A stretch of DNA of 32,000 bases from Candidatus Electrothrix sp. GW3-4 (GTDB lineage Bacteria; Desulfobacterota; Desulfobulbia; Desulfobulbales; Desulfobulbaceae): positions 1,170,001 to 1,202,000 of the forward strand of contig NZ_CP147990.1 in assembly GCF_037902255.1 (NCBI RefSeq), read 5' to 3'. Numbering within the stretch: the first letter of the stretch is position 1; each line of letters opens with the position of its first letter. The notes beneath the pieces are model-generated. The model was not told the origin of the DNA. It worked only from the letters and a program-made list of their open reading frames with translations, and did no database searches. Shown piece after piece: positions 5,360 through 32,000 of the stretch. The position numbers and the translations under genes were made by a program.

Positions 5360-5543
5360 GTCGTCCTCGCGTTGATTTTGTTTATAACCATGCTGTCTGA
5401 TCAGGTTGCTGACCAGACGCCTTTAAGATAGAGTGCAAAATATGATAAAGTATAAACGATTGCTCCGAGTGGTTACAAAAAAAAATAAATTTTTTGTATA
5501 ATTTTTTGGTGTCAGTCCGCAGCACAGCAATCTAATAAAGCAG

Positions 5544-5572
5544 TTGACCACTGCGGATAAGGAGAATATACT
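5544..5572 (+). promoter_or_regulatory. candidate sigma70-type promoter for the radical-SAM/hemE/HD cluster
   Basis: TTGACC (5544-5549), a 17-nt spacer, then TATACT (5567-5572), about 60 nt upstream of ATG 5634 in an AT-rich divergent intergenic region. Confidence 0.35.
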
Positions 5573-5633
5573 TCAATTTTCTTGAGCAATAAGACAAGAG
5601 TCATCCTTAACATTATAGCAAGAGTATCAGATA

Positions 5634-6686
5634 ATGAATTTTGAACCGAAATGGATCGCCTGGGAAATCACCCGTCGTTGCAATCTCAACTGTGTGCATT
5701 GCCGATCTTCTTCTGAGCTTGAAATTGCAGGTCATCCTGATTGTTCTTTTGCGGAGGCAAAGCGGGTTCTGGATGATATCAAGTCCTATGCTGATCCGGT
5801 CATGGTCCTTTCAGGTGGGGAGCCCCTTTTGCGCCCTGATGTTTTTGATATTGCGTCCTATGGAACGAGTCTTGGGCTGCGCATGTGTCTGGCTACCAAC
5901 GGTACCCTGGTAACCGAAGAAACCTGTCGCCATATTAAAGAATCCGGCATAAAAATGGTTTCCCTGAGCCTGGATGGCTCCACTGCTGAGGTGCATGATA
6001 ACTTTCGCAACCAGCCTGGGGCCTTTGCAGGCACCATGAAGGCTATCCAGCTCTTTAACGAACATGGGATTCCATTTCTTATTAACTCCTCCTTCACGAA
6101 AAGGAATAAAACCGAAGCGCCGAAAATTTACGAGTTGGTCAAAAAGCTTGGTGCTACGGCCTGGTATCTGTTTATGATTGTTCCCACCGGGCGCGGCGAG
6201 GAGATCATTGAGGAGCTGATTCCTGAATCAGAATACGAGGATATCCTGAACTGGCATTATGATATGGAAAAAGAAGAGCATGAGATGCTGGTGCGTCCGA
6301 CCTGCGCCCCCCAGTATTACCGGATTGTGCTTCAGCGTTCCAAGGCCGAGGGAGAAAAATTCAAACGTCGTTCTTTGAAATTTTCTACTGGTGGCTCTAA
6401 AGGATGTCTGGCTGGTCAGCTGATCTGTCTTATCGATGTTGATGGTAATGTGCTGCCGTGCAGTTATTTTCCCAAGTCTGGCGGCAATATTCGCGAACAG
6501 TCCTTTCAGGATATTTGGGAAAATTCTGAGCTTTTTATGGAACTTCGTAATTTCAAAGGGTATAAAGATAACTGTGGACGCTGTGAATATGTCAACGTCT
6601 GCGGCGGCTGTCGGGCCCGGGCCTATGCCATGACCGGTGATTATCTGGCCCAGGAACCCTTTTGCACCTATCAGCCCAGAAGCTGA
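5634..6686 (+). CDS. radical SAM/SPASM-domain protein of the NirJ/AhbC/AhbD family (possible heme b synthase AhbD)
   Basis: CNLNCVHC (CxxxCxxC) cluster preceded by WEITRRCN. C-terminal Cys-rich SPASM region CLAGQ...PCSYF...[18 protein letters not shown]. The gene lies directly upstream of hemE. Confidence 0.65.
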
Positions 6687-8694: not shown

Positions 8695-9444
8695 GTGGAA
8701 ATTTTTTTTCTCGGTGTCGGAGAGACCTGTGACACAGCGCACGGCAACAGCTCCTCTATATTGACAACAAATAATGGAACCAGGATATTACTGGATTGTG
8801 GCTTTACGGTGCCGCACCAATACTTCCGTATTGTAGAGGACCCAACCCGGCTGGATTATATCTGGATCTCTCATTTTCACGGCGATCATTACCTCGGCCT
8901 TCCCCTGCTCTTTCTCCGTCTCTGGCAAATGGGCCGGACAAAACCACTGGCCATTGTTGGTCAGAAAGGTATTGAAGAATGGGTTATGAAACTGCTGGAA
9001 ATGGCCTATCCTACCTTCAGTCAAAAGATCGGTTTTTCTTTTAAGTTTCATGTTATTTCTCCAAGGGCAACTGCTCATATAGCAGGAATGGAGTGGTCAA
9101 CAGCACTGACCCAGCATACGCAGTATAACCTTGGATTGCTGCTGAAAGATGGGAGTAAAAAACTCTATTATAGTGGTGATGGGCGGGCCAATACCCGGGT
9201 GCGAAGGCTCATCCGTGGGTGCGACTTCGCTATCCATGAATCATTCAATATGGTTGACACTTATCCTTATCATGGTTCTATTACCAGCACCTTGAAGTTG
9301 GCCGATGAAATGGATATAGGGCAGGTTGCCTTGGTGCATCTGGAACATAGTCTGCGAAAAAACGAGATTGATACCATAAAACGCATAGTGCAGGACAGGC
9401 CCAATACCCTGCTACCCGTTGCTGGTGATCGCCTGAGTTTCTAA
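8695..9444 (+). CDS. MBL-fold metallo-hydrolase (RNase Z/beta-lactamase-like)
   Basis: FLGVGE...ILLDCG...WISHFHGDH (HxHxDH) ...YSGDG...H motifs. GTG start with GGAG 9 nt upstream. Confidence 0.75.
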   Translation: MEIFFLGVGETCDTAHGNSSSILTTNNGTRILLDCGFTVPHQYFRIVEDPTRLDYIWISHFHGDHYLGLPLLFLRLWQMGRTKPLAIVGQKGIEEWVMKLLEMAYPTFSQKIGFSFKFHVISPRATAHIAGMEWSTALTQHTQYNLGLLLKDGSKKLYYSGDGRANTRVRRLIRGCDFAIHESFNMVDTYPYHGSITSTLKLADEMDIGQVALVHLEHSLRKNEIDTIKRIVQDRPNTLLPVAGDRLSF

Positions 9445-9506: not shown

Positions 9507-10619
9507 ATGACATCCAGAACCCTACAGGTATTGACAGTACTTCTTTTATCTCTGCTTATCCTCTCCATGGTCCCTGTTGCGGCAACAGCAGGAGGCAGAA
9601 AGCCGCAACGCCCCAAGGCAAAACCTGCTCTCCGCTTTGATGCAAGGGATGACGCGTCACCAAAGTACATCAGGATGGCGGATAACTTTTTTGTTTTTTA
9701 TGACCCTTCCACAGCCATGGCAGTGCCTTATAAAAAAACGGGCATGACCCGCCTGGAGATGTCTAAACAGATTCTCTTGAAGAGTAATGCTGCTATGCCG
9801 GATCTGCGCTGGCAAACAGGTCTTTATCCTCATTGGAAGAATGTGATGTGGCTTCCTGCCTCGCCAGGCAGTTTTCAGCCCTACTATGCCTTACAGAATT
9901 ACGATAAGGATAACTTCGCCAGCGCACTTGGGGAATTGCCGGTGCTCAGTTCCGGGCCCCCTATGCTGCAAATGTCCCTGATGAAGATGGAGTATCTTTT
10001 GGGGCTCCCTGGTCGTACGGAGATCTTTCTCTTTACCAACGGTGAGGATGCCCGTTTCAAGGGGATTGATGAGCCTGCTCCGTTGTTCCAGGCCGAGATG
10101 CTGGCCAGGAAGTACGATATCTGCTACACGATCATCAGCAGTGCAACCACACCAGAGGCGGAGAGATTACTCCATAAAATCGCTGAGGTGAATGACTGTT
10201 CACAGGTGGTTGATTTTGATACCGTTGCTGCTCATCCCGAGTATCTCTTTGGTCGCCTATATATGACACCGGATGGGCTTTTTGACAACGTCCTGTTCGC
10301 TTTTGACAAGGCAAATATCCGCAGGAAATACCGGGGAACCTTGGATCGGTTGGGGAATTATCTCTTGGAACACCCAACCCATTATGCTGTCCTCTCTGGA
10401 TTCTGTGATATTATCGGCACGGAAAAATACAATATGCGTTTATCCCAGCGCAGGGCAGAGCGTGCGCAAAAGTATCTGCTGGATCATTTCCCGGCGCTTA
10501 CCAAGGAACGTATCCTCCTCTACTGGTACGGGTATGCCCACCCGGTTGCCTCGAATAAGACCGTAGCTGGGCGACGCCTGAATCGTCGGGTCACCATCAT
10601 GATTCGTAAGGGCTTCTGA
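9507..10619 (+). CDS. exported OmpA-family (peptidoglycan-binding C-terminal domain) protein with an unassigned N-terminal domain
   Basis: Signal peptide LQVLTVLLLSLLILSMVPVAATA. C-terminal OmpA_C-like segment VLFAFDKANIRRKY...LSGFCDIIGTEKYNMRLSQRRAERAQKYL...GRRLNRRVTI. Confidence 0.75.
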   Translation: MTSRTLQVLTVLLLSLLILSMVPVAATAGGRKPQRPKAKPALRFDARDDASPKYIRMADNFFVFYDPSTAMAVPYKKTGMTRLEMSKQILLKSNAAMPDLRWQTGLYPHWKNVMWLPASPGSFQPYYALQNYDKDNFASALGELPVLSSGPPMLQMSLMKMEYLLGLPGRTEIFLFTNGEDARFKGIDEPAPLFQAEMLARKYDICYTIISSATTPEAERLLHKIAEVNDCSQVVDFDTVAAHPEYLFGRLYMTPDGLFDNVLFAFDKANIRRKYRGTLDRLGNYLLEHPTHYAVLSGFCDIIGTEKYNMRLSQRRAERAQKYLLDHFPALTKERILLYWYGYAHPVASNKTVAGRRLNRRVTIMIRKGF

Positions 10620-11949: not shown

Positions 11950-12324
11950 TGATGGGGGCGACATCTTGCTTGGTGAAGGGCCACCTTGCACAAGCATTTT
12001 AAGCTCATCGAAAGAGCGGGGCTGTTCCAAAAGGTAAAACACCCGTTGCTAGCCATTCGATCCAGCTTTTCGACGCTTTGTCATGTGTCGGCCAAGGGGC
12101 TGGCGATCTCTATTGCTCAAAAAAGAAGGCAAGTGAAGATACCCGCAGATTCATCGGCATGATGATGTCACTTTCAATTATCTTCATTACCTTCCCTTTC
12201 ACAAAACCGCATTTTTTGTCAGGAACTACAGGCGGTTATTTCTTTCTTAGGCGAAAAAGTCCTGTCCTGCAATAAAAAACACTCACCCTTGCCTTTTGTA
12301 ACATCAGATTATTGAATGGAATAT

Positions 12325-12450
12325 TTATGCCTGCGGATGAAATGAAATGTTTCGGCAGTATTCCTTGATCAGTTGGAGTCGCTGTTTGACGGTCATGCGG
12401 AAGTAAAAGGGGCTGAACATCAATATATGGATAGCGTTACGACGTTTCAT
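12325..12450 (-). CDS. possible 41-aa small protein (MKRRNAIHILMFSPFYFRMTVKQRLQLIKEYCRNISFHPQA)
   Basis: Found by hand translation; it is below the ORF-track size cutoff. ATG is preceded by AGAGGT with a 7-nt spacer, and a perfect minus-strand TATAAT (12487-12492) lies about 35 nt upstream. No similarity is known to me. Confidence 0.25.
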   Translation of the reverse strand: MKRRNAIHILMFSPFYFRMTVKQRLQLIKEYCRNISFHPQA

Positions 12451-12730
12451 TTTTTGTACCTCTATTGAACTCTTGTTTTCTGTAATATTATACTATATGG
12501 TTACGGGTATAAAAAGTTATACTTTGTGTTTTTTTGTTTGGCTCTGGGGGCTAATTTCACACCTGCATGTTCGGATAATTTGTTGAGCTTGAGCATCCAT
12601 GGGCTGGCTGTGGCTTGGATGTTTTCTTTTTTCTTTTTTTTTCAAGGTGGTTGATACCTTTTCTTCTCGGTTTTCCTTTGAAAGTGGTCAGTGAAGCCGA
12701 TCAGGATTCCCCTCTTTCATGTTATATTGT

Positions 12731-12748
12731 CCCCCCCCCTTTTTTTTT
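12731..12748. repeat. C9T9 homopolymer tract in a pyrimidine-rich leader
   Basis: C x9 (12731-12739) is directly followed by T x9 (12740-12748). A further T4CT6CT9 tract lies at 12622-12642. Confidence 0.95.
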
Positions 12749-12964
12749 CTTTCGTAGCCCCTGATCTGGTTTTTGGCGATTTTTCCATTTTTATCGTCCG
12801 ATAGTGCTGTTTTCAGCATACTCAGTGTAAAAAAAGTGTGATGGTGTGGCAAAATCAACCATTCGTAGATGTACTCTTTGAATGGAGTAAAATATAATTC
12901 TTACGAAAAAACAAAATACATTTTGAATTTTATCACGTGAATGTAGAGGTAAAGGTGGGATGGT

Positions 12965-13357
12965 ATGAATATGAAAAGACCGAGGCAGCAGAGAATAGAT
13001 TTACCTGACTATATAGCGACCCTCAAAGAGGGGGATTGCGGCTTTACGGGTATATTAAAAGGCGTATCCCTTAACGGATTTCAGGTGGTTTTTTGCCCTG
13101 CGGATGTACAACTAATTTCTGAGCTGAGTCTTTTAGATCCCCTCCCCATTTGCCGCAACAGAAAAATTAAAATCGTTGTTTCCAAAAAACTGGGCAACGA
13201 GAATTATAAGGAGAGATATTGCTCAAACTTGAGGAGAAAACACTATAGAGTGACAGCGTATGCGCGATGGTGGATAGAAAAAGATAATTCAGTGGAGGTT
13301 GGTTTTGAGCTTCCTGTGATTACTCTTGATTGGAAATTATTTATTTCGAGCTTTTAA
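12965..13357 (+). CDS. orphan hypothetical protein, possibly a PilZ-like fold with degenerate c-di-GMP motifs
   Basis: Strong SD AAGGTGGG 5-6 nt upstream of the ATG. The N-terminal RPRQQRIDL...GILKGVSLNGFQVVF resembles the PilZ pattern RxxxR...(D/N)xSxxG but matches neither motif exactly. The gene is low-GC and isolated between long non-coding stretches. Confidence 0.45.
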   Translation: MNMKRPRQQRIDLPDYIATLKEGDCGFTGILKGVSLNGFQVVFCPADVQLISELSLLDPLPICRNRKIKIVVSKKLGNENYKERYCSNLRRKHYRVTAYARWWIEKDNSVEVGFELPVITLDWKLFISSF

Positions 13358-13750
13358 GATGATAATCTTCTGATCTGGTCAGCATGCCTTGCTGCCCTGT
13401 CCTTAGTGCTAAGTCATGACTAAATTTTAGGGTTACCATTTCCGGACCAAATCGAAAGATGGAACAATTACGGAAACGACCAATCCTAAATTTTAGCTTT
13501 TACAGAGCACTGGTTGTTTTTTGATCTTTCCGTAGCGCGTGCCCCCGTCTATTTTTGTTTTGCCCTAACCATTTTCTTCCTCTTGTCTTCCCCTGTTTGG
13601 TCCTGAAGCTCAAGCCCGCAGTCTTGGTCTGTCGCATCCAGTTGATGAGGGCCATAAAAAGGGATATCAATTCATGGAGGAGATCATTTTTTTGTTTTGT
13701 TCGTCATGAGGCGGGCAATAAGCCCATCTGTGCTTTCCGAGAGCCAAAAA

Positions 13751-13786
13751 CAAAAAAAAGGACTTAACGAAAAAACGTTAAGTCCT
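13751..13786 (-). terminator. intrinsic terminator downstream of tRNA-Glu
   Basis: 11-bp perfect stem AGGACTTAACG/CGTTAAGTCCT (13759-13769 and 13776-13786) with a 6-nt loop. On the minus strand it is followed by a T8 run. Confidence 0.8.
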
Positions 13787-13797
13787 TGAAAGCTCTA

Positions 13798-13872
13798 TGG
13801 TGACCCCAAGGGGAATCGAACCCCTGTTTACGGCGTGAGAGGCCGTCGTCCTAACCGCTAGACGATGGGGCC
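13798..13872 (-). tRNA. tRNA-Glu (anticodon CUC)
   Basis: Minus-strand sequence GGCCCCATCGTCTAGCGGTTAGGACGACGGCCTCTCACGCCGTAAACAGGGGTTCGATTCCCCTTGGGGTCACCA. It folds as a cloverleaf with a 7-bp acceptor stem, anticodon loop CU-CUC-AC, T-loop TTCGATT and an encoded CCA. Confidence 0.9.
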
Positions 13873-13891
13873 ATAAAGTGTGAAGAGGTAT

Positions 13892-15541
13892 TTAACCTCT
13901 TTCGCTCTCATTGTCAATGTTGTTTTTTGCTTTTTCTTCTTTTTTTGCCGGGAGCCTGCCAAATAATGTCGTGCTCGCCTTGAGCTCTGCGGCAAGGGTC
14001 TTGGTGATAAATTGTGGGGCACAGCGCCATTGCCAATTATTACTCGCTGTTCCAGGTTGGTTCATGCGGCAGTCGTTGCCAAAACCCAGGATATCCTGCA
14101 TGGGCAGGATAGAGAGCGCGGCCACAGAGGACTGGGCCAGGTAGATCATCTGCTTATGAAAATGACCAGCATCAGTATCCTGACAATTGGCATAACGTCT
14201 GGCTAATGCCTTGGCCTCGCGAGGTACCTCCTTGCTGAGGTACCAGCCCACGGCAGTATCGTTATCGTGAGTGCCGGTATAGACCACGCAGTTGCGGCTC
14301 ATATTCTGGGGCAGATAGGCGTTCTCTGGATCGTCGTCAAAGGCAAAGAGGAGGATTTTCATGCCTGGGAACCCCAGATCATCGCGTAATTTTTCTACAG
14401 CCGGGGTAATGATGCCTAAATCCTCAGCAATGATCGGGAGGTCACCTAGCTGTTTTTTCATCTCTTCAAAAAAGGAGCGGCCTGGACCATCTTTCCAGGA
14501 GCCGTTTAATGCGGTTTCCTCTTCTGCCGGGACGGACCAGTAGGATTCAAAGCCGCGAAAATGATCAATGCGGATAATATCTACAGTCGACAGGATGGCC
14601 TGCAGGCGTTGCTGCCACCAAGTGAGCAGTTTTTTCTGCACCGCTCCTTTGCTTTGCCAACGATAGAGAGGATTCCCCCAGAGTTGTCCTGTGTCACTGA
14701 AATAATCAGGGGGCACACCTGCCACGTGGGTCGGTTCTCCGGTTTGAGGCGATAAAGTGAATATTTCCTGATGAGCCCAGACATCAGCGGAGTCAAGGCC
14801 CACATAAATAGGCAGGTCACCTATGATCTGAATCCCTTTTTTTTGTGCATAGCTATGCAGTTTTTCCCATTGTCTGAAAAAAAGGTATTGCTCAAACTGG
14901 AAATAACGAATCTCCTTCTGTAATTCCTTTGTTGTCCTGCGGATAGCTTCCGGCTGGCAGCAACGGATTTTTTGGGGCCATTGCATCCAGCCTTGCTGGT
15001 GAAACTGCTGCTTTAAGGCCATAAAGAGGCTGTACATTTTCAGCCAATGGTGAGTATCAATAAGCTTTGTGAAAAAACGATCCTGCTCAGCCGGAGCGGT
15101 CTGTTGCTGGAAGGTCTGCCAGGCCTTGTTGAGGGTCCCTTTTTTCCAGGCTGTGACCTGCGCAAAATCGACCAGGAACTCAGAAAAGTTATGCTCTGGC
15201 AGGTCAGCTGTGCTCAGTAGGCCGTCCTGGATGAGCTGCTCCGGGCTAATGAACAGGGGGTTGCCTGCAAAGGCAGAACTGCTCATATAGGGTGAGTTGC
15301 CGAAAATCTCATTTGTCGGACCGAGAGGCAGGACCTGCCAGTACTGCTGGCCACTCTGGGCAAGGAAGTCGATAAAGGCGAAACTCTCCGGCCCCAGATC
15401 ACCGATTCCAAAGGGGCTTGGCAGGGAAGAGAGATGGAGAAGAACACCAGATGATCTGGTGTCTGAAGAAAAACGACTTTTTTGCGGGGAGGCCGGGGGG
15501 ATCTGATCCGAAGTCTCTGATGTATTCATAAGCGAGGTCAT
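13892..15541 (-). CDS. malQ: 4-alpha-glucanotransferase (amylomaltase, GH77)
   Basis: RSSGVLLHLSSLPSPFGIGDLG, RIDHFRGF, IIAEDLG and VVYTGTHDNDT motifs, preceded by an N-terminal extension of about 30 aa. Confidence 0.9.
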   Translation of the reverse strand: MTSLMNTSETSDQIPPASPQKSRFSSDTRSSGVLLHLSSLPSPFGIGDLGPESFAFIDFLAQSGQQYWQVLPLGPTNEIFGNSPYMSSSAFAGNPLFISPEQLIQDGLLSTADLPEHNFSEFLVDFAQVTAWKKGTLNKAWQTFQQQTAPAEQDRFFTKLIDTHHWLKMYSLFMALKQQFHQQGWMQWPQKIRCCQPEAIRRTTKELQKEIRYFQFEQYLFFRQWEKLHSYAQKKGIQIIGDLPIYVGLDSADVWAHQEIFTLSPQTGEPTHVAGVPPDYFSDTGQLWGNPLYRWQSKGAVQKKLLTWWQQRLQAILSTVDIIRIDHFRGFESYWSVPAEEETALNGSWKDGPGRSFFEEMKKQLGDLPIIAEDLGIITPAVEKLRDDLGFPGMKILLFAFDDDPENAYLPQNMSRNCVVYTGTHDNDTAVGWYLSKEVPREAKALARRYANCQDTDAGHFHKQMIYLAQSSVAALSILPMQDILGFGNDCRMNQPGTASNNWQWRCAPQFITKTLAAELKASTTLFGRLPAKKEEKAKNNIDNESERG

Positions 15542-24246: not shown

Positions 24247-24762
24247 ATGCCTGGTCATCCTGTTCATCCTCCTGTCCATATCGTCTTCCAATTTCTTAAG
24301 CAAGAACAGCGTCCTGCTATCCACCTCCATGAAGGACTGCTCCGCAGCCAGGTCCTGATGCTCTTGGAGGAGATCGATCGGCCTGCCAGCAGCGTAAGCA
24401 TCGTGTTTATGGATGATCCGGCCATGACCGCCTATAACCAGCAGTACCGCTCCAAACCAGGGCCGACCAATGTCCTTTCCTTTCCAGCAGCAGAGGGGCT
24501 GGATGAGCTGGAGGGTCTTCTGCCGGAGGGGCTGGCAGCAGATGAACTGGGGGATATCCTTATTTCCGTTGAGACTGCACAGCGAGAGGCCCGGGAAAAA
24601 GACATCTCCCTGCATCAGCGCCTGACCGAGTTGCTCATTCACGGTCTCCTCCATCTGATCGGCTATGATCATGAGATCTCAGACCAGGAGGCCGAGCGGA
24701 TGTTCAGCCGGGAAAGGTCCCTCTTTTGTGCAATCCACCATCACCAACCATGGAGAAAAAAA
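24247..24762 (+). CDS. ybeY: endoribonuclease YbeY (rRNA maturation factor); the frame has no stop codon and continues in-frame into pdxJ
   Basis: [31 protein letters not shown] and the Zn-binding [11 protein letters not shown] motif. There is no in-frame stop before ATG 24763. Confidence 0.75.
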
Positions 24763-25488
24763 ATGCCCAAACTCGCCATTAATGTCGACCATATTGCCAC
24801 CATCCGTCAGGCCCGAGGGGGAACAGAACCGGATCCTGTCCATGCCGCTGGCATCTGTGAACTTGCTGGTGCCCAGGGGATCGTGGTCCATCTCCGGGAA
24901 GACCGCCGTCATATCCAGGATCGGGATGTCCGTCTCCTCCGCCAGACCGTGAAGACCCGGCTTAATCTGGAGATGGCCAATGTCAAGGAAATCGTCGAGA
25001 TCGCCCTGGAACTCAGGCCGGACATGATTACCCTGGTCCCGGAAAAACGGCAAGAACTGACCACCGAAGGCGGCCTGGATGTGATCGGCAATGCAAAAAA
25101 GCTGCGCAAGACCATCAAGCGGATGAAAGAGGCCGGGATCCCGGTCTCCCTTTTTATTGATCCTGATACAGAGCAGATTGAGGCCTCGCAGGCGCTTGGG
25201 GCGACCTATGTGGAGCTGCATACGGGCCGCTACTGCGATGCAGAGACAGAAAAGGAACGAGATAAGGAATTTCGTCTGATTGAACAGGCCGCTGAACAGG
25301 CCTTTGAAGCGGGCCTACGGGTCAATGCAGGTCATGGCCTTGATTACCGGACCACCACCCGGATTGCAGCCATTCCCTTTCTTGAGGAGCTGAGCATCGG
25401 CCATGCGGTCATTGCCCGCGCGGCCTTTGTTGGCCTGGATCAGGCGGTGCGGGAGATGCAGGCCTGTATTGACCGGGCCGGGAGATAG
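24763..25488 (+). CDS. pdxJ: pyridoxine 5'-phosphate synthase
   Basis: [59 protein letters not shown] and NAGHGL motifs. Length 241 aa. GGAG lies 7 nt upstream of the ATG. Confidence 0.9.
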
Positions 25489-26694: not shown

Positions 26695-26782
26695 GCCCGG
26701 ATGGCGGAACTGGTAGACGCAAGGGACTTAAAATCCCTCGGTTCTTGTAACTGTGCGAGTTCGATTCTCGCTCCGGGCACCA
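26695..26782 (+). tRNA. tRNA-Leu (anticodon UAA), class II with long variable arm
   Basis: GCCCGGATGGCGGAACTGGTAGACGCAAGGGACTTAAAATCCCTCGGTTCTTGTAACTGTGCGAGTTCGATTCTCGCTCCGGGCACCA. Acceptor GCCCGGA/TCCGGGC, anticodon loop CT-TAA-AA, T-arm GCGAG-TTCGATT-CTCGC, encoded CCA. Confidence 0.9.
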
Positions 26783-26792
26783 GAAATTTCAA

Positions 26793-26827
26793 GGGGTTAC
26801 GGCTTTTCGGCTGTAACCCCTTTTTTT
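26793..26827 (+). terminator. intrinsic terminator after tRNA-Leu
   Basis: 11-bp stem GGGGTTACGGC/GCTGTAACCCC followed by TTTTTTT. Confidence 0.85.
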
Positions 26828-27095: not shown

Positions 27096-27360
27096 CATAC
27101 TTTTTAAAAATGGGGCCTTCTCTTTAAAAATATGGTCGTGGATTTTTAAATTAGAGCTCTTCTCTTTAAAAATATGGTCGTGGATTTTTAAATTAGAGCT
27201 CTTCTCTTTAAAAATATGGTCGTGGATTTTTAAATTAGAGCCCTTCTCTTTAAAAATATGGTCATGGGTTTTTCGATGAGAGTCCTCTCTCTTTTAAAGA
27301 GGGTCATGATTTTTTGAATTAAAGCCCTCATTTTTAAAAGGCGAGCCTTGTTTTTTTTTA
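27096..27360. repeat. 42-bp tandem repeat array (3 near-identical, 2 diverged and 2 partial copies)
   Basis: Unit is cttctctttaaaaatatggtcgtggatttttaaattagagct. Copies at 27117-27158 and 27159-27200 are identical, and 27201-27242 differs by 1 nt. Copies at 27243-27284 and 27285-27326 are diverged. Partial copies lie at 27096-27116 and 27327-27360. Confidence 0.95.
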
Positions 27361-30300
27361 AGGTGAGAAGGGGACAGGAGGGGGTGAGGTCTCTATTGCT
27401 TCTTGGCCGAGTTCAGCATTTTTGGCGAGATTTTCAGCCAAACGCTCGATGGTCCACTCCAGACGTTCTTTGATGGCCCCTTCCTGGCCTGGTACTTGAC
27501 AGGGTTTCAGGTTGGCGAGGATATCTTTTAGTCTGGGCAGGTCATCCTGTTTGCCGGTGTATTCCAGGTTCCAGAGGGCAAGGTCGATGGCCTGGAAGGC
27601 GGCATAGGGGAAAGGGGAAGGGAGATCGGCAGGATCGAACTTTTGGTGGGCGTTGATGATCTTGGCGATACGGGTGGCGGTAGGTTTGGCACCCAAGGCG
27701 TAAACAGCTCCTTGGCGGACGTGGTAGAGAGGATGTCGGAGTAGGTCAATACCGGTGGTTTCAGGGGCGATGCGGGTTAATGCAGTGGCAAGGCGGTATT
27801 CGTGGTGTTCCCAGTAGGCATCTTCTTTCATGTCCACTTTCTCGGTTTCATCTCCTGTGTCAGCGCTCTCATCGTCAGATTCTCTTTTTTGATCCCGCTG
27901 CATCCTCCACGCCGCCTTGGCTTCTTCCAACTTCCTCAGTTCATTTTCGATATATGCTTGGGCTGGCTTATATTTCATACGACCGAGCCATAACATACAA
28001 AGCGAACGAAGCGCATCGTCTTCGGGATGAGTAAGTTGTTCGGTCATCAGCGTGTACAGGTCTTCGGCACAGGCGTGGCGATTCGTTTTACCGAGGGCAT
28101 CAATGGCAGTTACGCGAAAGCAGTTTTTTTGCTGCGGAGAGGCGATGATATTACGAAGTACAGTGTGGATTTTCTGGTCAAGTTCAGGGAAATCTGCGGC
28201 CTTCTTGTCGCCGCGAAAGGAAATAAAGCGACCTAAGGCGGTGAGGGCAGCTACGCGGAGTTCAAGATGGGAATGATTGGTCAGAGCAAGCAATCGATCT
28301 TTCTGTTCCTGGAACCATTCTGGATGGTATGCTGCGATGTTACCTATAGAATAAATCGCGCTTGATGTTACTGCTGGATTAGAATTATTTATAAGTCTAG
28401 AGAGTAGTTCAGCAGCCTGCTGAGTATAAATATGACCAAGAGTTTGTGCAGCAGCAATCTTTTTATTATCATATCCCGAGTCAATCTGCTGCGTTGCTTT
28501 TTTGAGTTTTTCTTCTTGCCACTTAACAAGCTTTGGAGAAGAATAATTCATCTTAAGGAGAGCATATGCCGCTGCCTGAAAAATGAAATGCTTGCTATCC
28601 AGGTCAAGATATTTAATGAGGTCAGGAATAGCCGCTTTGACACGTAAATCACCAAGGACTTTGATTGCCGCCTGCTGCACTTTTAAGTCCTCATCATAAA
28701 GAAACTCATAAAGGCACTTCACGATTGCGGGTGAGGCCGAGTCGGCATGCAGATTGCCAAGGGTATAGATTGCCTGTTCTTGCAAGCCAATATTTTTATC
28801 CTTAAGATATTGAACAAGTTGCGGGATTGCTGACTCGGCATGAAGATCACCGATATTTTTGATCACTGTCCAACTTACCTCTTTATCATTAATATATTTG
28901 AGGATATCGGGCGCTGCCGATTCGGCACGCAATTGACTCAGAGCTAAAATTGCCGCCCATCGGATATGATCATATTTAATATCAAGGTGCTGAACAATAC
29001 GTGGTAGTGCCGATTCAACACGCAAGAGGGCAAGTGCTGTGATTGTCACCTCTTGTACTTCTTTACTTTCACTATTAAGGAATGTAATCAGCTTTGGACT
29101 TGCCTTTTCTGCACGTAATTTTCCAAGAGCTTCGATCACCGCTACTTGTAACCTTTCCTTGTCAACAGGAGAAAAAAAAGATTTACTAAGGACGTTACGT
29201 TCTTTCTGCTCTGCACTCTGTTCCGTATTGTCAAGGAGTTTAATGAGTTCTTCTGTAGCTGATTCTGCAAGCAGGCTGCCAAGAGTTTTGATTACTCCCC
29301 ATCGTATTTCTTTATTTTCATCATCAAGATAAGTAGTTATTCTAGGGGCAACAGAACTGATACCAAGATCGCCAAGCAAAATGATCGCAGCTAGTTTTCG
29401 CTTCTCATCCTTCTCATCAAGGCATGCAATGAGTGCAGGACCTATTGATTGAGCAGGAAAGTTCTGGAGAGCGGCTTGTATTCTGTAATCTATATTGTAC
29501 AAACCGTTATTGCCTCGCTGAAGATAGTGGTCAAGGTATTCGGTGATTTTTTGGGGTAGTAATTTGTCATGCAAATCACCTAGAGCTAGAATTGTCGTTA
29601 GTTGCATCTCGTTATCTTCATCATTAAGATAGGTTGCTATCTTTGATATCTCCGACTCGTCGCCCAACTTGCCAATAGCATGGATTGCCTGTATTTTTAA
29701 CTGACTTTCATTTCTTTCTGTAATTAACTTAATTAGTTGAGGGATTTTCGATTTGGCGTTTAGCTTTTCAACTGCAAACACTGCCCATCGTTGTACCAGC
29801 AACTCACTATCTTTAAGACGGTTCTCAATTTCAGGCAGAAATGACATTTCACCAAAGGCCATAGCTGTTTTGATTGCCTCTATTCGTAGTCCTGAATTTT
29901 TATCTTTAAAGAATTTAGAAGCATATTCAAGCACAGATTCGTCATGTAAGGCAACAAGAGCTTGGATTGTTGTTTTCTTGACCTCTGGGTCTTCTTCATC
30001 ATTAAATTTCTTGAGGATCTTCGGAATAGCCGATTTTACTTCTATACCAACCAATGCTTGAATTCCTGCCTGCTGAACTGGTATATCGTCGTTTTGTTCG
30101 AGCAGAGAGTCTATTATGTTGACAGCTTTTTTTGATCTCACCCAAGGCAGCTGCTTAAGCAAACGTATTATCTTCTTGCTTGGATCATGCTCCTCATGCT
30201 CCAAAATTTTGTTTTTCAGCGTGTACCCTTCCTGGTATAGGCCATCCTGCATATAAAAAGCAAAACGATCCAGCATAGGCAGATGGTATATCAAGTCCTG

Positions 30301-31803
30301 CCGAGTCTTCGTTGCATTATTAAGCATATGCTGATTGAATAATCTGTCCGCCTCAATCTCCTGACGGGAAAAAGATGTCTCGTACTGGAAGGTCCGTTGC
30401 CCGAACAGATCCTTTTGGTCGATATCCCCTTGATACAGCTCAATTCTATCAGAAATGGATTTCTTCGGACTCAACTGGAGATAACGACCGAAATAGTTTG
30501 TTTGAAACGTGTTACCTATGTATATGAGACTGACAATAGTCAGAACTGCAATACTTCCACAAGCCAGCCGCCTAAGCCGCTGCCTTGCCTTGAACCCCCG
30601 ATTCCAGCTATCAATAGATTCCGAAAAAATATCATGATACAGCTCATACCAAAACTGCTCACCCCGCATCTGCCGCCGCAGAATCGCATAATCCTGCAAC
30701 CTATCCAAAACCGGCTGCAACTCCTTCTCATCAACCCTGGCCAACTCAGCCAAGCGCTCCAAAGGATGGGCAATCTTGATCGCCCGCGTCCCCACCAGAT
30801 GGTCAAAGGCTGCTGAGGCAAGGGCCTGCTCTTGTTTACTGAAGAGACCTATCTTGCCGAGAAAATACGAATTCAGTATCCCCGCTGTCCTTCCGGCTTT
30901 TTCGTAGGCCGCATGAGTAATCTGCTTGAGCTGATCATCTCGATGCCCTTGCCATAATTCCCGACAGACAATCTGTAGATGCGGCGGTTCCACCAGCAGG
31001 GGTAACTCTTTTAACCTCATTAAATTCTGCACCCCGAACTGCCGTTCCTGTTCCCGCTTGGCCAGATCATCCAGCACCTGATCCAGTAGGGCCTCCTGAT
31101 CTTCTGTCTGCGGCGCAAAACAATAGCCCGTTGCTTTTAACGGCTCTTCAATGGCCAGGCGGGCCTGGTCTCGAGTCAGTTTTTCAAGGCGAAAGTAATT
31201 GTCAAATATACCAGGCAGGGTGTTTTTAAAGCTGTTCAGTTCCAGGGCAAAGTCTTCACGCATGGAAAAGACAAAGGAGGCCGCCAGATTGCGGTCAAGG
31301 ATTGCTGCACTCAGGTCTTCAAGAAAGGGCTGGAATTCAGGTCGAAAACGCTGGTAGTTGAAAAATTCTTCAAACTGGTCAAGGAGGAGCACCTGTTGGC
31401 CGGTGCTGAAGATGGTGCAGGCCCGCAGGCTCTCTTGAAGAGAGAGTTGAGCAAACTGTTTATCAAGCGCGGCTCCATTATATTTTTCCCGAAAATGGTT
31501 ACTGATGGTTTGGCGAAGGGCTGTTCCCGGATCCGTGGCCCAGTCGCGATGATAGATCAGCTCTGCATCCTCATCCCTATTCAGCACCGGCATAATCCCG
31601 GCCCGCAGCAGGGAACTCTTGCCCACACCGCTGCCAGCCAACAGCAGGGTCAGCCGGTTGGCGTGAATTTTGTCCAGGAGGATACTGATCTCCTGGTCAC
31701 GACCAAAGAAACGATCCTGTTCGTCTTCCCGGAAAGGGCGGAGGCCGATATAGGGCTCAAAGGCAGGGGAGGGCATCTCTGCTTTCTTTTTTGCTGAACT
31801 CAT
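27358..31803 (-). CDS. 1,481-aa P-loop NTPase (STAND/AAA-like) - single TM helix - HEAT-like (PBS-lyase type) repeat protein
   Basis: N-terminus FEPYIGLRPFREDEQDRFFGRDQE. Walker A LLLAGSGVGKSSLL (aa 54-67) and Walker B-like QVLLLDQFEEFF (aa 136-148). Hydrophobic helix RQRLRR-LACGSIAVLTIVSLIYIGNTF at about aa 405-433. From about aa 560 to 1300 there are many ~31-aa repeats of the form A(I/L)xALGxLxxxxAxPxLxxxLxDxxxxV(R/Q), followed by an acidic patch ESDDESADTGDETE. Confidence 0.85.
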   Translation of the reverse strand: MSSAKKKAEMPSPAFEPYIGLRPFREDEQDRFFGRDQEISILLDKIHANRLTLLLAGSGVGKSSLLRAGIMPVLNRDEDAELIYHRDWATDPGTALRQTISNHFREKYNGAALDKQFAQLSLQESLRACTIFSTGQQVLLLDQFEEFFNYQRFRPEFQPFLEDLSAAILDRNLAASFVFSMREDFALELNSFKNTLPGIFDNYFRLEKLTRDQARLAIEEPLKATGYCFAPQTEDQEALLDQVLDDLAKREQERQFGVQNLMRLKELPLLVEPPHLQIVCRELWQGHRDDQLKQITHAAYEKAGRTAGILNSYFLGKIGLFSKQEQALASAAFDHLVGTRAIKIAHPLERLAELARVDEKELQPVLDRLQDYAILRRQMRGEQFWYELYHDIFSESIDSWNRGFKARQRLRRLACGSIAVLTIVSLIYIGNTFQTNYFGRYLQLSPKKSISDRIELYQGDIDQKDLFGQRTFQYETSFSRQEIEADRLFNQHMLNNATKTRQDLIYHLPMLDRFAFYMQDGLYQEGYTLKNKILEHEEHDPSKKIIRLLKQLPWVRSKKAVNIIDSLLEQNDDIPVQQAGIQALVGIEVKSAIPKILKKFNDEEDPEVKKTTIQALVALHDESVLEYASKFFKDKNSGLRIEAIKTAMAFGEMSFLPEIENRLKDSELLVQRWAVFAVEKLNAKSKIPQLIKLITERNESQLKIQAIHAIGKLGDESEISKIATYLNDEDNEMQLTTILALGDLHDKLLPQKITEYLDHYLQRGNNGLYNIDYRIQAALQNFPAQSIGPALIACLDEKDEKRKLAAIILLGDLGISSVAPRITTYLDDENKEIRWGVIKTLGSLLAESATEELIKLLDNTEQSAEQKERNVLSKSFFSPVDKERLQVAVIEALGKLRAEKASPKLITFLNSESKEVQEVTITALALLRVESALPRIVQHLDIKYDHIRWAAILALSQLRAESAAPDILKYINDKEVSWTVIKNIGDLHAESAIPQLVQYLKDKNIGLQEQAIYTLGNLHADSASPAIVKCLYEFLYDEDLKVQQAAIKVLGDLRVKAAIPDLIKYLDLDSKHFIFQAAAYALLKMNYSSPKLVKWQEEKLKKATQQIDSGYDNKKIAAAQTLGHIYTQQAAELLSRLINNSNPAVTSSAIYSIGNIAAYHPEWFQEQKDRLLALTNHSHLELRVAALTALGRFISFRGDKKAADFPELDQKIHTVLRNIIASPQQKNCFRVTAIDALGKTNRHACAEDLYTLMTEQLTHPEDDALRSLCMLWLGRMKYKPAQAYIENELRKLEEAKAAWRMQRDQKRESDDESADTGDETEKVDMKEDAYWEHHEYRLATALTRIAPETTGIDLLRHPLYHVRQGAVYALGAKPTATRIAKIINAHQKFDPADLPSPFPYAAFQAIDLALWNLEYTGKQDDLPRLKDILANLKPCQVPGQEGAIKERLEWTIERLAENLAKNAELGQEAIETSPPPVPFSP

Positions 31804-32000
31804 GATTCCATCTCCTGGGCAAGTTCCTGAACAAAGGTCCTGAGTGCAAGGTCAAAGGGCTGCACATGGTTGTCCTGCCAAAAGGCGTGGGCAAATGGGG
31901 AAATATCTTTCTGTACAGCAAGGGATACAGCGCGATGATCCCGCTGCATCTGGATGGATTTGACCAGCAAACGTTCTTCCCAGCTCTCTGGATAATGGCC
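31800..32000 (-). CDS. 3' end of an unknown ORF translationally coupled to the NTPase gene (truncated by the window edge)
   Basis: Hand translation of the minus strand is open from 32000 to the TGA at 31800-31802 (...RESWEERLLVKSIQMQRDHRAVSLAVQKDISPFAHAFWQDNHVQPFDLALRTFVQELAQEMES*). The stop overlaps the downstream ATG as ATGA. Confidence 0.6.
   Translation of the reverse strand, partial: GHYPESWEERLLVKSIQMQRDHRAVSLAVQKDISPFAHAFWQDNHVQPFDLALRTFVQELAQEMES

Follow-up and report, generated by a model that had tools for sequence, protein, structure and literature searches.

A candidate two-gene STAND conflict system in Candidatus Electrothrix sp. GW3-4 that pairs an nSTAND1-HEAT protein with a degenerate SIR2-fold protein

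Results

A coupled gene pair at the end of the window

The subject of this study is a pair of overlapping genes at the right-hand end of a 32,000-nucleotide stretch of the genome of Candidatus Electrothrix sp. GW3-4 (assembly GCF_037902255.1, contig NZ_CP147990.1, positions 1,170,001 to 1,202,000 of the forward strand). We refer to this whole stretch as the window, and coordinates count from its first base unless another contig is named. Both genes lie on the reverse strand (-), as do all features described within them. The larger, at 27358..31803 including its stop codon (27358-27360), encodes a protein of 1,481 amino acids (aa) that the list of open reading frames (ORFs), Pfam profiles and homologues together identify as an nSTAND1 nucleoside triphosphatase (NTPase) followed by a predicted transmembrane (TM) helix and a long array of HEAT repeats. 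Its ATG (31803-31801) overlaps the TGA (31802-31800) of the gene upstream, giving the ATGA stop/start overlap of translationally coupled genes (31800..31803), and an AGGAG sequence stands 10 nt upstream of the ATG. The window contains the 3′ end of this partner gene, namely its last 66 codons and the TGA (31800..32000); a sequence-only reading of the same DNA had already noticed the overlap and the upstream frame still open at base 32000. We recovered the full gene (L001:964-2391) from a Logan contig, L001, which matches the window at every position of a 4,789-bp overlap (100% identity) and runs 2,190 bp past base 32000. The partner has 475 aa, the last 66 of which are those visible in the window, and is identical to database protein P0121, annotated in Candidatus Electrothrix sp. 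GW3-4, a cable bacterium. The STAND system encoded here is real and represents an uncharacterised form of a known kind of switch used by bacteria in immunity or cell death; its role and membrane topology we infer from the evidence below.

The large protein is an nSTAND1 NTPase

The N-terminal segment of the large protein (aa 17-36, PYIGLRPFREDEQDRFFGRD) carries a PYxGLxPF...FFGR motif, and aa 17-393 (30625..31755) match Pfam nSTAND1 (PF20703) over profile positions 1-340 of 379 with 154.1 bits against a cut-off of 27.1 (E=1e-44). This family corresponds to the nSTAND1 clade of STAND NTPases defined by Kaur et al., 2021 (PMC8195603). A homologue search returned 1,175 homologues of the 1,481-aa protein, and a score of 154 bits against a cut-off of 27, together with more than 1,100 homologues of the same architecture, means that the observation is no chance match. 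The invariant and conserved columns that we report for this protein come from an alignment of 47 homologous NTPase-protein sequences (A5). G59, G61, K62, S63 and S64 of the Walker A motif (GSGVGKSS, aa 57-64, 31612-31635) are invariant, as are D142-E146 of Walker B (LLLDQFEE, aa 139-146, 31366-31389) and R182 within the SMREDF motif (31249-31266). So too are W385, E387, L388, H390, D391 and F393 of a WYELYHDIF motif (aa 385-393, 30625-30651) in the winged-helix region, which resembles the MHD motif of NLRs; by analogy, the histidine of this 'MHD-like' motif may contact the nucleotide. An AlphaFold2 model of aa 1-1200 (mean predicted local distance difference test score, pLDDT, 84.4) supports the assignment of the NTPase module, placing an NTPase domain (pLDDT about 85-93) and a helical region ahead of a winged-helix-like module formed by helix 359-371 and the beta hairpin 375-388. 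The NTPase domain alone gave no match when compared with PDB sequences. The earlier description of a 1,481-aa ORF with this N-terminal motif, Walker A and Walker B was accurate, and its proposal of a STAND-type NTPase is borne out by the Pfam match.

A hydrophobic helix is common, variable in sequence and flanked asymmetrically

Immediately after the NTPase module lies a basic stretch, KARQRLRR (aa 405-412), followed by a hydrophobic helix (aa 413-431), together spanning 30511..30591 and predicted from Kyte-Doolittle hydrophobicity and the charge bias of the family to form an N-in/C-out anchor. The sequence-only reading had placed a single hydrophobic helix behind RQRLRR at about aa 405-433, which agrees with what we find. 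The 19-mer at aa 413-431 (LACGSIAVLTIVSLIYIGN) has a Kyte-Doolittle mean of 1.89, and just one other segment exceeds the hydrophobicity threshold, a HEAT helix at aa 804-822 (1.62). Using a mean of at least 1.4 over a 19-mer as the call, a helix follows the NTPase directly in about 89% of 121 family members; its sequence is variable and the character of its flanks is constant. The 15-residue flanks hold a mean of 5.3 lysines plus arginines before the helix versus 1.6 after it, with the N-terminal side the richer in 117/121 members. By the positive-inside rule this bias predicts that the NTPase is inside and the HEAT array outside, and a cytoplasmic NTPase would also fit its need for nucleoside triphosphates and for a soluble partner.

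The same architecture has precedents. In the source data published by Kaur et al., 2021 (PMC8195603), 'nSTAND1+TM' appears 412 times, with beta-propellers (278), TPRs (22) and FGS (4) after the TM segment, although 'nSTAND1+TM+HEAT', 'Trypsin+SIR2' and 'SIR2+nSTAND1' each occur 0 times, and a 2025 preprint names 'transmembrane STAND ATPases' as sensors of protease-Pepco modules. The earlier suggestion that the HEAT array would be extracytoplasmic agrees with the family charge bias, as a prediction, but the accompanying view that this would be very unusual does not sit with 412 tabulated cases of a TM segment behind nSTAND1.

At least seven homologues (P0063, P0074, P0076, P0077, P0084, P0099 and P0112) have no helix at all, their WNExYK being joined directly to YHLRLS. 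Homologues so cleanly helix-less make the helix an optional module, such that the sensing compartment may differ between members; the membrane anchor seems to have been gained or lost as a cassette. They also invite the proposal that the segment does not span the bilayer in any member and is instead a buried, amphipathic or oligomerisation helix within a soluble cytoplasmic STAND protein like the Avs proteins, especially as several of them keep both flanking motifs and the partner, and as many family helices are rich in glycine and alanine (e.g. LAVGTAAVLIAGGLLFAGN). We think this very improbable. What is conserved is hydrophobicity and not sequence, with Kyte-Doolittle means of up to 2.7; the flank asymmetry in nearly every member would be hard to account for; the AlphaFold2 model leaves aa 413-430 unpacked against the rest of the protein with pLDDT <50, and so gives no sign of the burial that would have spoken against a membrane segment; and the 412 table entries record TM calls at this position by independent annotators.

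The HEAT array is the fast-evolving part

Beyond the helix, AlphaFold2 predicts a small juxtamembrane beta domain (aa 435-496, 30316..30501; motifs YLQLSP, IELYQG, YET and IEADK) whose strands, 440-444, 453-458, 471-479 and 491-494, fall within aa 440-494. G459, E475, R480, E484 and D486 are conserved in it, and helix-less homologues keep the domain. A HEAT/ARM solenoid of about 730 aa follows (aa 497-1230, 28114..30315), supported by Pfam (HEAT_2 at E=4e-66 over 10 stretches, and also HEAT, HEAT_EZ and HEAT_PBS), by the AlphaFold2 model, in which helical pairs run unbroken from aa 497 to at least aa 1200, and by a Foldseek search of that model, which returned CAND1, karyopherin-beta, SF3B1 and PP2A-A. 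Such eukaryotic HEAT solenoids dominated the search of the 1,200-aa model, and the NTPase part is thus not informed by it. The 700 or more residues of repeats described in the sequence-only reading correspond to this solenoid. The remainder (aa 1231-1481, 27361..28113) consists of an acidic low-complexity insert and terminal HEAT-like helices, with conserved columns W/R/R, HPL..VR.GA and EWTI.

These regions evolve at very different rates. In comparison with homologues from cable bacteria, identity is 70-81% in the NTPase domain but only 28-30% in the central HEAT array; it is about 43% in the juxtamembrane domain and 50-63% in the C-terminal 250 aa, well above the central array. Such divergence is what would be expected of a recognition surface, and the central array is presumed to be the sensor. 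We also considered a recent expansion of the repeats and rejected it, because the HEAT units are only 61-73% identical to one another at the DNA level; there is no sign of recent expansion, and the units are old.

The partner has a SIR2 fold that has lost its catalytic residues

The AlphaFold2 model of the partner (pLDDT 86.9) comprises a coiled-coil hairpin (residues 11-104), a helical bundle or linker (112-183) and a Rossmann-type domain (193-466). Pfam SIR2_2 matches aa 297-457 (E=3e-12, 47 bits against a cut-off of 24.5), and a Foldseek search with the domain returned KomC, ThsA, DSR2 and Avs5 with E values down to 3e-9, those of KomC, ThsA and DSR2 being about 1e-8, and a target-normalised TM-score of 0.70. 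At the sequence level, the partner by itself found nothing useful in the PDB, and the family profile alone reached SIR2 structures, matching the SIR2 NADase KomC at E=3e-11. The best profile and structure matches of the domain, KomC (Kongming), ThsA (Thoeris) and DSR2, are oligomers or filaments in the matched structures.

The profile alignment shows that the canonical active site has been lost. At the NAD loop, KomC 'LFVGAGVS' aligns with partner 'LCLGQELS', which has no GAGxS; at the asparagine site, KomC 'TTNYD' aligns with 'SAAYD', putting alanine on the catalytic asparagine; and at the histidine site, KomC 'IKFHGD' aligns with 'YKLRGG', putting arginine on H146, which is the position altered in the KomC(H146N) structure in the PDB. 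That arginine is invariant in a 27-sequence alignment of partners. Across 191 partner-family SIR2-like domains pooled from two database searches, the histidine column reads R120/C23/L13/N5/H4 and the asparagine column A62/G37/S28/C17/T14/N6, so that histidine survives in 4 and asparagine in 6 of about 175 domains. The NAD loop is degenerate (GQELS or GxE/D), its second glycine column being E or D in 125/167 domains. KomC, ThsA and DSR2, by contrast, keep the TTNYD asparagine and the catalytic histidine (KomC H146, DSR2 H171) where the partner family has Ala/Gly/Ser and Arg/Cys. Other columns of the domain remain invariant, including G, E, P, Y, WE-R and W450. Loss of the active-site residues while these columns are held points to a domain that is under constraint and is probably not a canonical NADase.

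We asked whether the partner might nevertheless be the effector itself, that is, whether it consumes NAD+ at a non-canonical site in which Arg or Cys replaces His and is activated by the STAND oligomer as in Avs5, ThsA or DSR2, the N-terminal proteases and TIR domains found in relatives then being extra effectors. The intact SIR2 fold in a high-confidence model, the fact that all four of its closest structures are oligomerising defence NADases, the strong constraint on the domain (invariant G, R, G, E, P, Y, W, E, R, W) and the few family members that retain the histidine (4) or the asparagine (6) speak in favour of this idea. Nonetheless, we consider it doubtful. Almost every member has a substitution at each of the two canonical catalytic positions, the NAD loop is degenerate, and the deposited inactive mutants, KomC H146N and DSR2 H171A, hit exactly this histidine. 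Moreover, a constant module joined to many alternative enzymatic heads is the pattern of an adaptor or scaffold.

The pair is conserved and the N-terminal slot of the partner is exchanged

The pairing of the two genes, which the sequence-only reading suggested be checked by co-occurrence, is conserved. A scan with the partner alignment, taking one genome per species, gave 13 loci, 12 of which extend far enough to judge; in 12/12 an nSTAND1 ORF lies downstream on the same strand, either directly or within about 1 kb. The reciprocal approach, starting from distant NTPase homologues (27-35% identity), found a gene bearing SIR2_2 upstream in 4/4 cases, and the pair spans several phyla. These four are from Gallionella (L015), where Trypco1 and then a Trypsin_2-SIR2_2 gene lie upstream; Aminicenantes (L016), with CHAT-SIR2_2 upstream; Thiothrix eikelboomii (L017), with a 471-aa SIR2_2-only protein upstream and a TIR_2 protein downstream; and Desulfococcaceae (L018), with SIR2_2-TIR_2 upstream. 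The 4-nt ATGA overlap recurs in 8/13 tabulated loci (L001 included) and in Thiothrix L017, and the overlap is 11 nt in Aminicenantes L016.

Some features of individual loci may be recorded here. The Trypco1 gene of Gallionella L015 (3148-3459) precedes the Trypsin_2-SIR2-like gene, and a DUF559/MTES_1575 endonuclease-like gene (5493-5870) sits between partner and NTPase, breaking the usual coupling. Two nSTAND1-HEAT paralogues, P0012 and P0017 (partner P0145), are apparently on one 27,866-bp Planctomycetes contig, and two others, P0013 and P0020, apparently on one Electrothrix chromosome (5,089,909 bp), which suggests local duplication or several systems per genome.

SIR2_2 was matched in 93/94 representatives of the partner family, and what precedes it is variable: Trypsin_2 (11/94), TIR_2 (9/94), CHAT (9/94), EAD7 (7/94), caspase (6/94), EAD2 (2/94) and EAD8, EAD9 and SEFIR (1/94 each), with about half of the representatives matching none of these families. 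In the Electrothrix partner the slot is filled by the coiled-coil hairpin, which carries a (D)(L)ETRxEExxRL motif near residue 35 and does not match any Pfam EAD model. About 24/155 members form a subgroup with an N-terminal region of roughly 190 aa and this 'ETR' motif in the same context, and ETR occurs in 31/155 N-terminal regions against 7.9 expected from composition. The motif of the Thiothrix partner is DLETHIDEKIRLE. Directly after the Thiothrix nSTAND1-HEAT gene is the gene for the TIR_2 protein (199 aa, L017 10188-10787), the C-terminal end of which is YDLETREEEKMRLE; the ETR motif is therefore common to the N-terminus of effector-less SIR2-like partners, that of the window included, and to the tail of the Thiothrix TIR_2 protein. 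On the evidence of one neighbourhood and the recurrence of a motif, the ETR coiled coil may act as a homotypic adaptor, bringing in an effector whose gene lies elsewhere, or may self-assemble. The sequence-only reading had supposed that an off-window partner might supply an effector: a conserved companion was indeed recovered, but no enzymatic effector is visible in it and the slot holds a coiled coil.

The locus occupies a strain-variable site beside tRNA-Leu

ARAGORN places a tRNA-Leu(taa) gene at 26695-26782 (+), with conserved core to its left and a strain-variable region to its right. The tRNA gene is followed by a terminator-like hairpin (26791-26822), and the large gene has its stop codon starting 575 bp past the 3′ end of the tRNA (the earlier estimate was about 580 bp). 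The core genes on the left encode a TrkA-type K+ channel, a YbeY-PdxJ fusion, DUF3108, PLD-type, radical-SAM and sigma-70 proteins and MalQ. Identity across Electrothrix is 86-91% for the K+ channel, compared with 50% for the best homologue of the NTPase protein, and the content of the site varies, both of which speak for an accessory status of the system. At the orthologous junction in CP138355 (L021, 8339-9833), a phage-type integrase, AlpA and a Toprim/DUF3987 primase come directly after the tRNA; in Electrothrix sp. Rat3 (L020), two tRNA-Leu(taa) genes (8762-8848 and 9750-9837) bracket PhdYeFM/ParE, after which come Fic/SocA and PIN/MazE; and in YB6 (L022) synteny is broken at the K+ channel/tRNA-Leu junction. 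Differing mobile cargo at the same junction points to an integration hotspot, with the system as accessory cargo there. The idea of a tRNA-linked variable region, for which the sequence-only reading proposed comparing the flanks in related genomes, thus holds, since sister genomes carry either an integrase island or toxin-antitoxin genes there. The direct repeat of the tRNA-Leu 3′ end that it suggested looking for to the right did not appear: the 2,190 bp past base 32000 contain no tRNA-Leu repeat of at least 11 nt and no integrase, and the far boundary lies beyond that stretch.

Two further possibilities were set aside. Adjacency to a tRNA is not a trait of the family, there being 0/17 related loci with a tRNA, and GC content is not a signal of transfer, since only the HEAT-coding part is low in GC (0.44). 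The values for the NTPase part (0.52) and for the partner gene (0.50) agree with that of the core, and composition is therefore no evidence of recent transfer.

Several neighbouring features are of separate interest. Much of the spacer between the tRNA-Leu and the nSTAND1 stop codon is a 42-bp tandem repeat (27116-27339; 5.3 copies, 85-97% matches, unit CTTCTCTTTAAAAATATGGTCGTGGATTTTTAAATTAGAGCT), which may be left over from the boundary of an element or may serve as a regulatory or terminator array. The YbeY-PdxJ fusion (24247-25488, (+), 413 aa) joins a YbeY endoribonuclease (aa 46-160) to a pyridoxine-5'-phosphate synthase, PdxJ (aa 175-408), and is called in other Electrothrix genomes too. 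On the far side of the pair, a hemerythrin-domain gene (L001 157-618, (-)), about 1.8-2.2 kb past base 32000 and divergent from the partner gene, has a GC content of 0.34 compared with about 0.52 for the core and looks more foreign than the STAND pair. Away from the STAND locus, GC dips to 0.42 in 12001-14000, around a tRNA-Glu (13798-13872).

Discussion

The reading of this site as a candidate uncharacterised STAND-type system is supported, with an NTPase family, a conserved companion gene and a variable tRNA-linked site all found. We think it reasonably probable that the two genes form an NLR-like (STAND) conflict module, in which a membrane-anchored STAND ATPase with a HEAT sensor is partnered by a protein with a degenerate SIR2 fold.

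The closest relatives of the large protein are the nSTAND1+TM+repeat proteins (PF20703) of the 'counter-invader' systems of Kaur et al., 2021 (PMC8195603), which belong to the same NTPase clade, have the same order of NTPase, single TM segment and repeats, and are likewise linked to caspase, trypsin, TIR and EAD modules and to multicellular bacteria. In their published examples the NTPase usually has its effector or EAD as an N-terminal fusion, whereas here the effector or adaptor is on a separate, coupled SIR2-like protein. The occurrence of EAD7, EAD2, EAD8 and EAD9 in the N-terminal slot of the partner family recalls the EAD coupling described by the same authors (Kaur et al., 2020; Kaur et al., 2021), and the ETR motif common to the partner and the adjoining Thiothrix TIR protein would be a parallel to the 'EAD-coupling principle' (PMC7159879). 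The two-gene EACC1-caspase system (Kaur et al., 2020) is likewise a membrane-associated conflict pair of multicellular bacteria, and some of its caspase proteins contain nSTAND1+TM+beta-propeller. The partner cannot be equated with EACC1, however, which is a small single-TM protein and not a soluble 475-aa protein with a SIR2 fold.

The Avs5 SIR2 domain is described as an active NADase effector. Avs5/SIR2-STAND proteins (EfAvs5, PDB 9jap; AVAST5 filament, 9nc9) share with the present system a SIR2-fold module, a STAND NTPase and a C-terminal sensor, and their SIR2 domain matches that of the partner in Foldseek with E=8.5e-7 to 3e-4. The differences are nevertheless substantial. Avs5 has its SIR2 domain and NTPase on one polypeptide, while here the SIR2-like domain is separate, lacks the catalytic asparagine and histidine and carries other effectors or adaptors at its N-terminus; the NTPase here is of the nSTAND1 type with a membrane helix; and neither protein matches a PADLOC Avs model. 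We therefore rejected an identification of the locus as Avs5. KomC, ThsA and DSR2 differ in another respect, in that they are not paired with nSTAND1. In the searchable literature and the tables of Kaur et al., 2021 we found no description of a HEAT version with a SIR2-like constant partner, nor any of an ETR adaptor motif.

These comparisons lead us to a working model. The HEAT solenoid would recognise a trigger, freeing the nSTAND1 NTPase to exchange nucleotide and oligomerise. The oligomer would arrange the SIR2-like constant modules, which would act as a docking or assembly scaffold and not as an NADase, and the N-terminal head would then be switched on by induced proximity. In relatives this head is mostly a trypsin, CHAT or caspase protease or a TIR domain; here the ETR coiled coil would presumably recruit an effector in trans. 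What the data establish are the identities of the domains, the loss of the catalytic residues, the conserved and coupled pairing, the exchange of heads, the conservation and charge bias of the helix, the uneven divergence and the variability of the site; a trigger, oligomerisation of the NTPase, docking by the SIR2-like domain, an N-in/C-out topology that would put the HEAT array outside the cytoplasm and a part in defence or cell death are proposals of the model. It is possible, and we put this forward more tentatively than the conflict module itself, that a dead SIR2 fold is the universal constant module by which swappable death effectors and coiled-coil adaptors are mounted on an NLR whose ATPase is cytoplasmic and whose HEAT region, hypervariable and about 1,000 aa long, surveys the periplasm in filamentous, multicellular bacteria.

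Several observations weigh against a complete, membrane-anchored defence module. The PADLOC models identified no validated defence system in the large protein, only a generic HEAT-ARM_XIII match, and nothing in the partner below E=0.1. The neighbourhoods of the four distant-homologue loci are no obvious defence islands. The Electrothrix locus shows no enzymatic effector, the 34 kb available there contain no second ORF with an ETR motif, and the module could be incomplete or decayed. The AlphaFold2 model of the large protein has low inter-domain confidence (predicted TM-score 0.44). Finally, the helix-less P0112 of Desulfococcaceae is still paired with a SIR2-like/TIR partner, so either the HEAT array may work in the cytoplasm or the sensing compartment varies among members.

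Cable-bacterial filaments are described as having a periplasm that is shared between their cells. A different function could accordingly be imagined for a HEAT array that faces this space, namely that the large protein is a transmembrane receptor for signals from self or environment and is not directed against invaders, its periplasmic HEAT array sensing damage, the state of neighbours or the envelope and triggering altruistic or developmental death or proteolytic signalling by way of the cytoplasmic NTPase and the partner. The predicted placement of the array outside, the concentration of the family in filamentous and multicellular bacteria and the position of several related loci among metabolic and not defence genes are all compatible with such a receptor, and periplasmic sensing by STAND proteins or by targets of diversity-generating retroelements (DGRs) has been proposed for other multicellular bacteria (PMC10907252). 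We nonetheless consider this unlikely, to a slightly greater degree than we do NADase activity in the partner, though not as much so as a helix that fails to span the membrane. Variants without the helix exist that have the same partner, the rate at which the HEAT array diverges is typical of antagonistic co-evolution, the locus varies between strains and lies beside an integration hotspot, and the repertoire of TIR, caspase, CHAT, trypsin and EAD modules is that of conflict systems (PMC8195603). For these reasons we continue to favour a conflict module.

If the simpler readings are true, the locus would add one more uncharacterised member to the nSTAND1 conflict systems. If the fuller proposal is true, it would represent an outside-in NLR that uses a pseudo-enzyme as its adaptor. 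The SIR2 fold may have moved from enzyme to scaffold, a pseudo-enzyme adaptor now standing in the position of the SIR2 domain of Avs5, and effector exchange is modular, with Trypsin, CHAT, caspase, TIR, EADs or the 'ETR' coiled coil mounted on one constant module. If the helix spans the bilayer as the charge bias predicts, a very large and fast-evolving HEAT sensor would lie outside the cytoplasm, making NLR-like monitoring of the periplasm possible. An association with a multicellular habit has been reported for nSTAND1 and related systems (PMC8195603, PMC7159879), and the carriers of the present family are filamentous or multicellular bacteria, namely cable bacteria, Beggiatoa, Thiomargarita and Thiothrix. 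Bacteria, plants and animals have the logic of STAND/NLR switches in common, in immunity as in programmed cell death. The concentration of this family in cable bacteria and in giant and filamentous sulfur bacteria means that the system bears on how infection or damage may be contained in multicellular prokaryotes.

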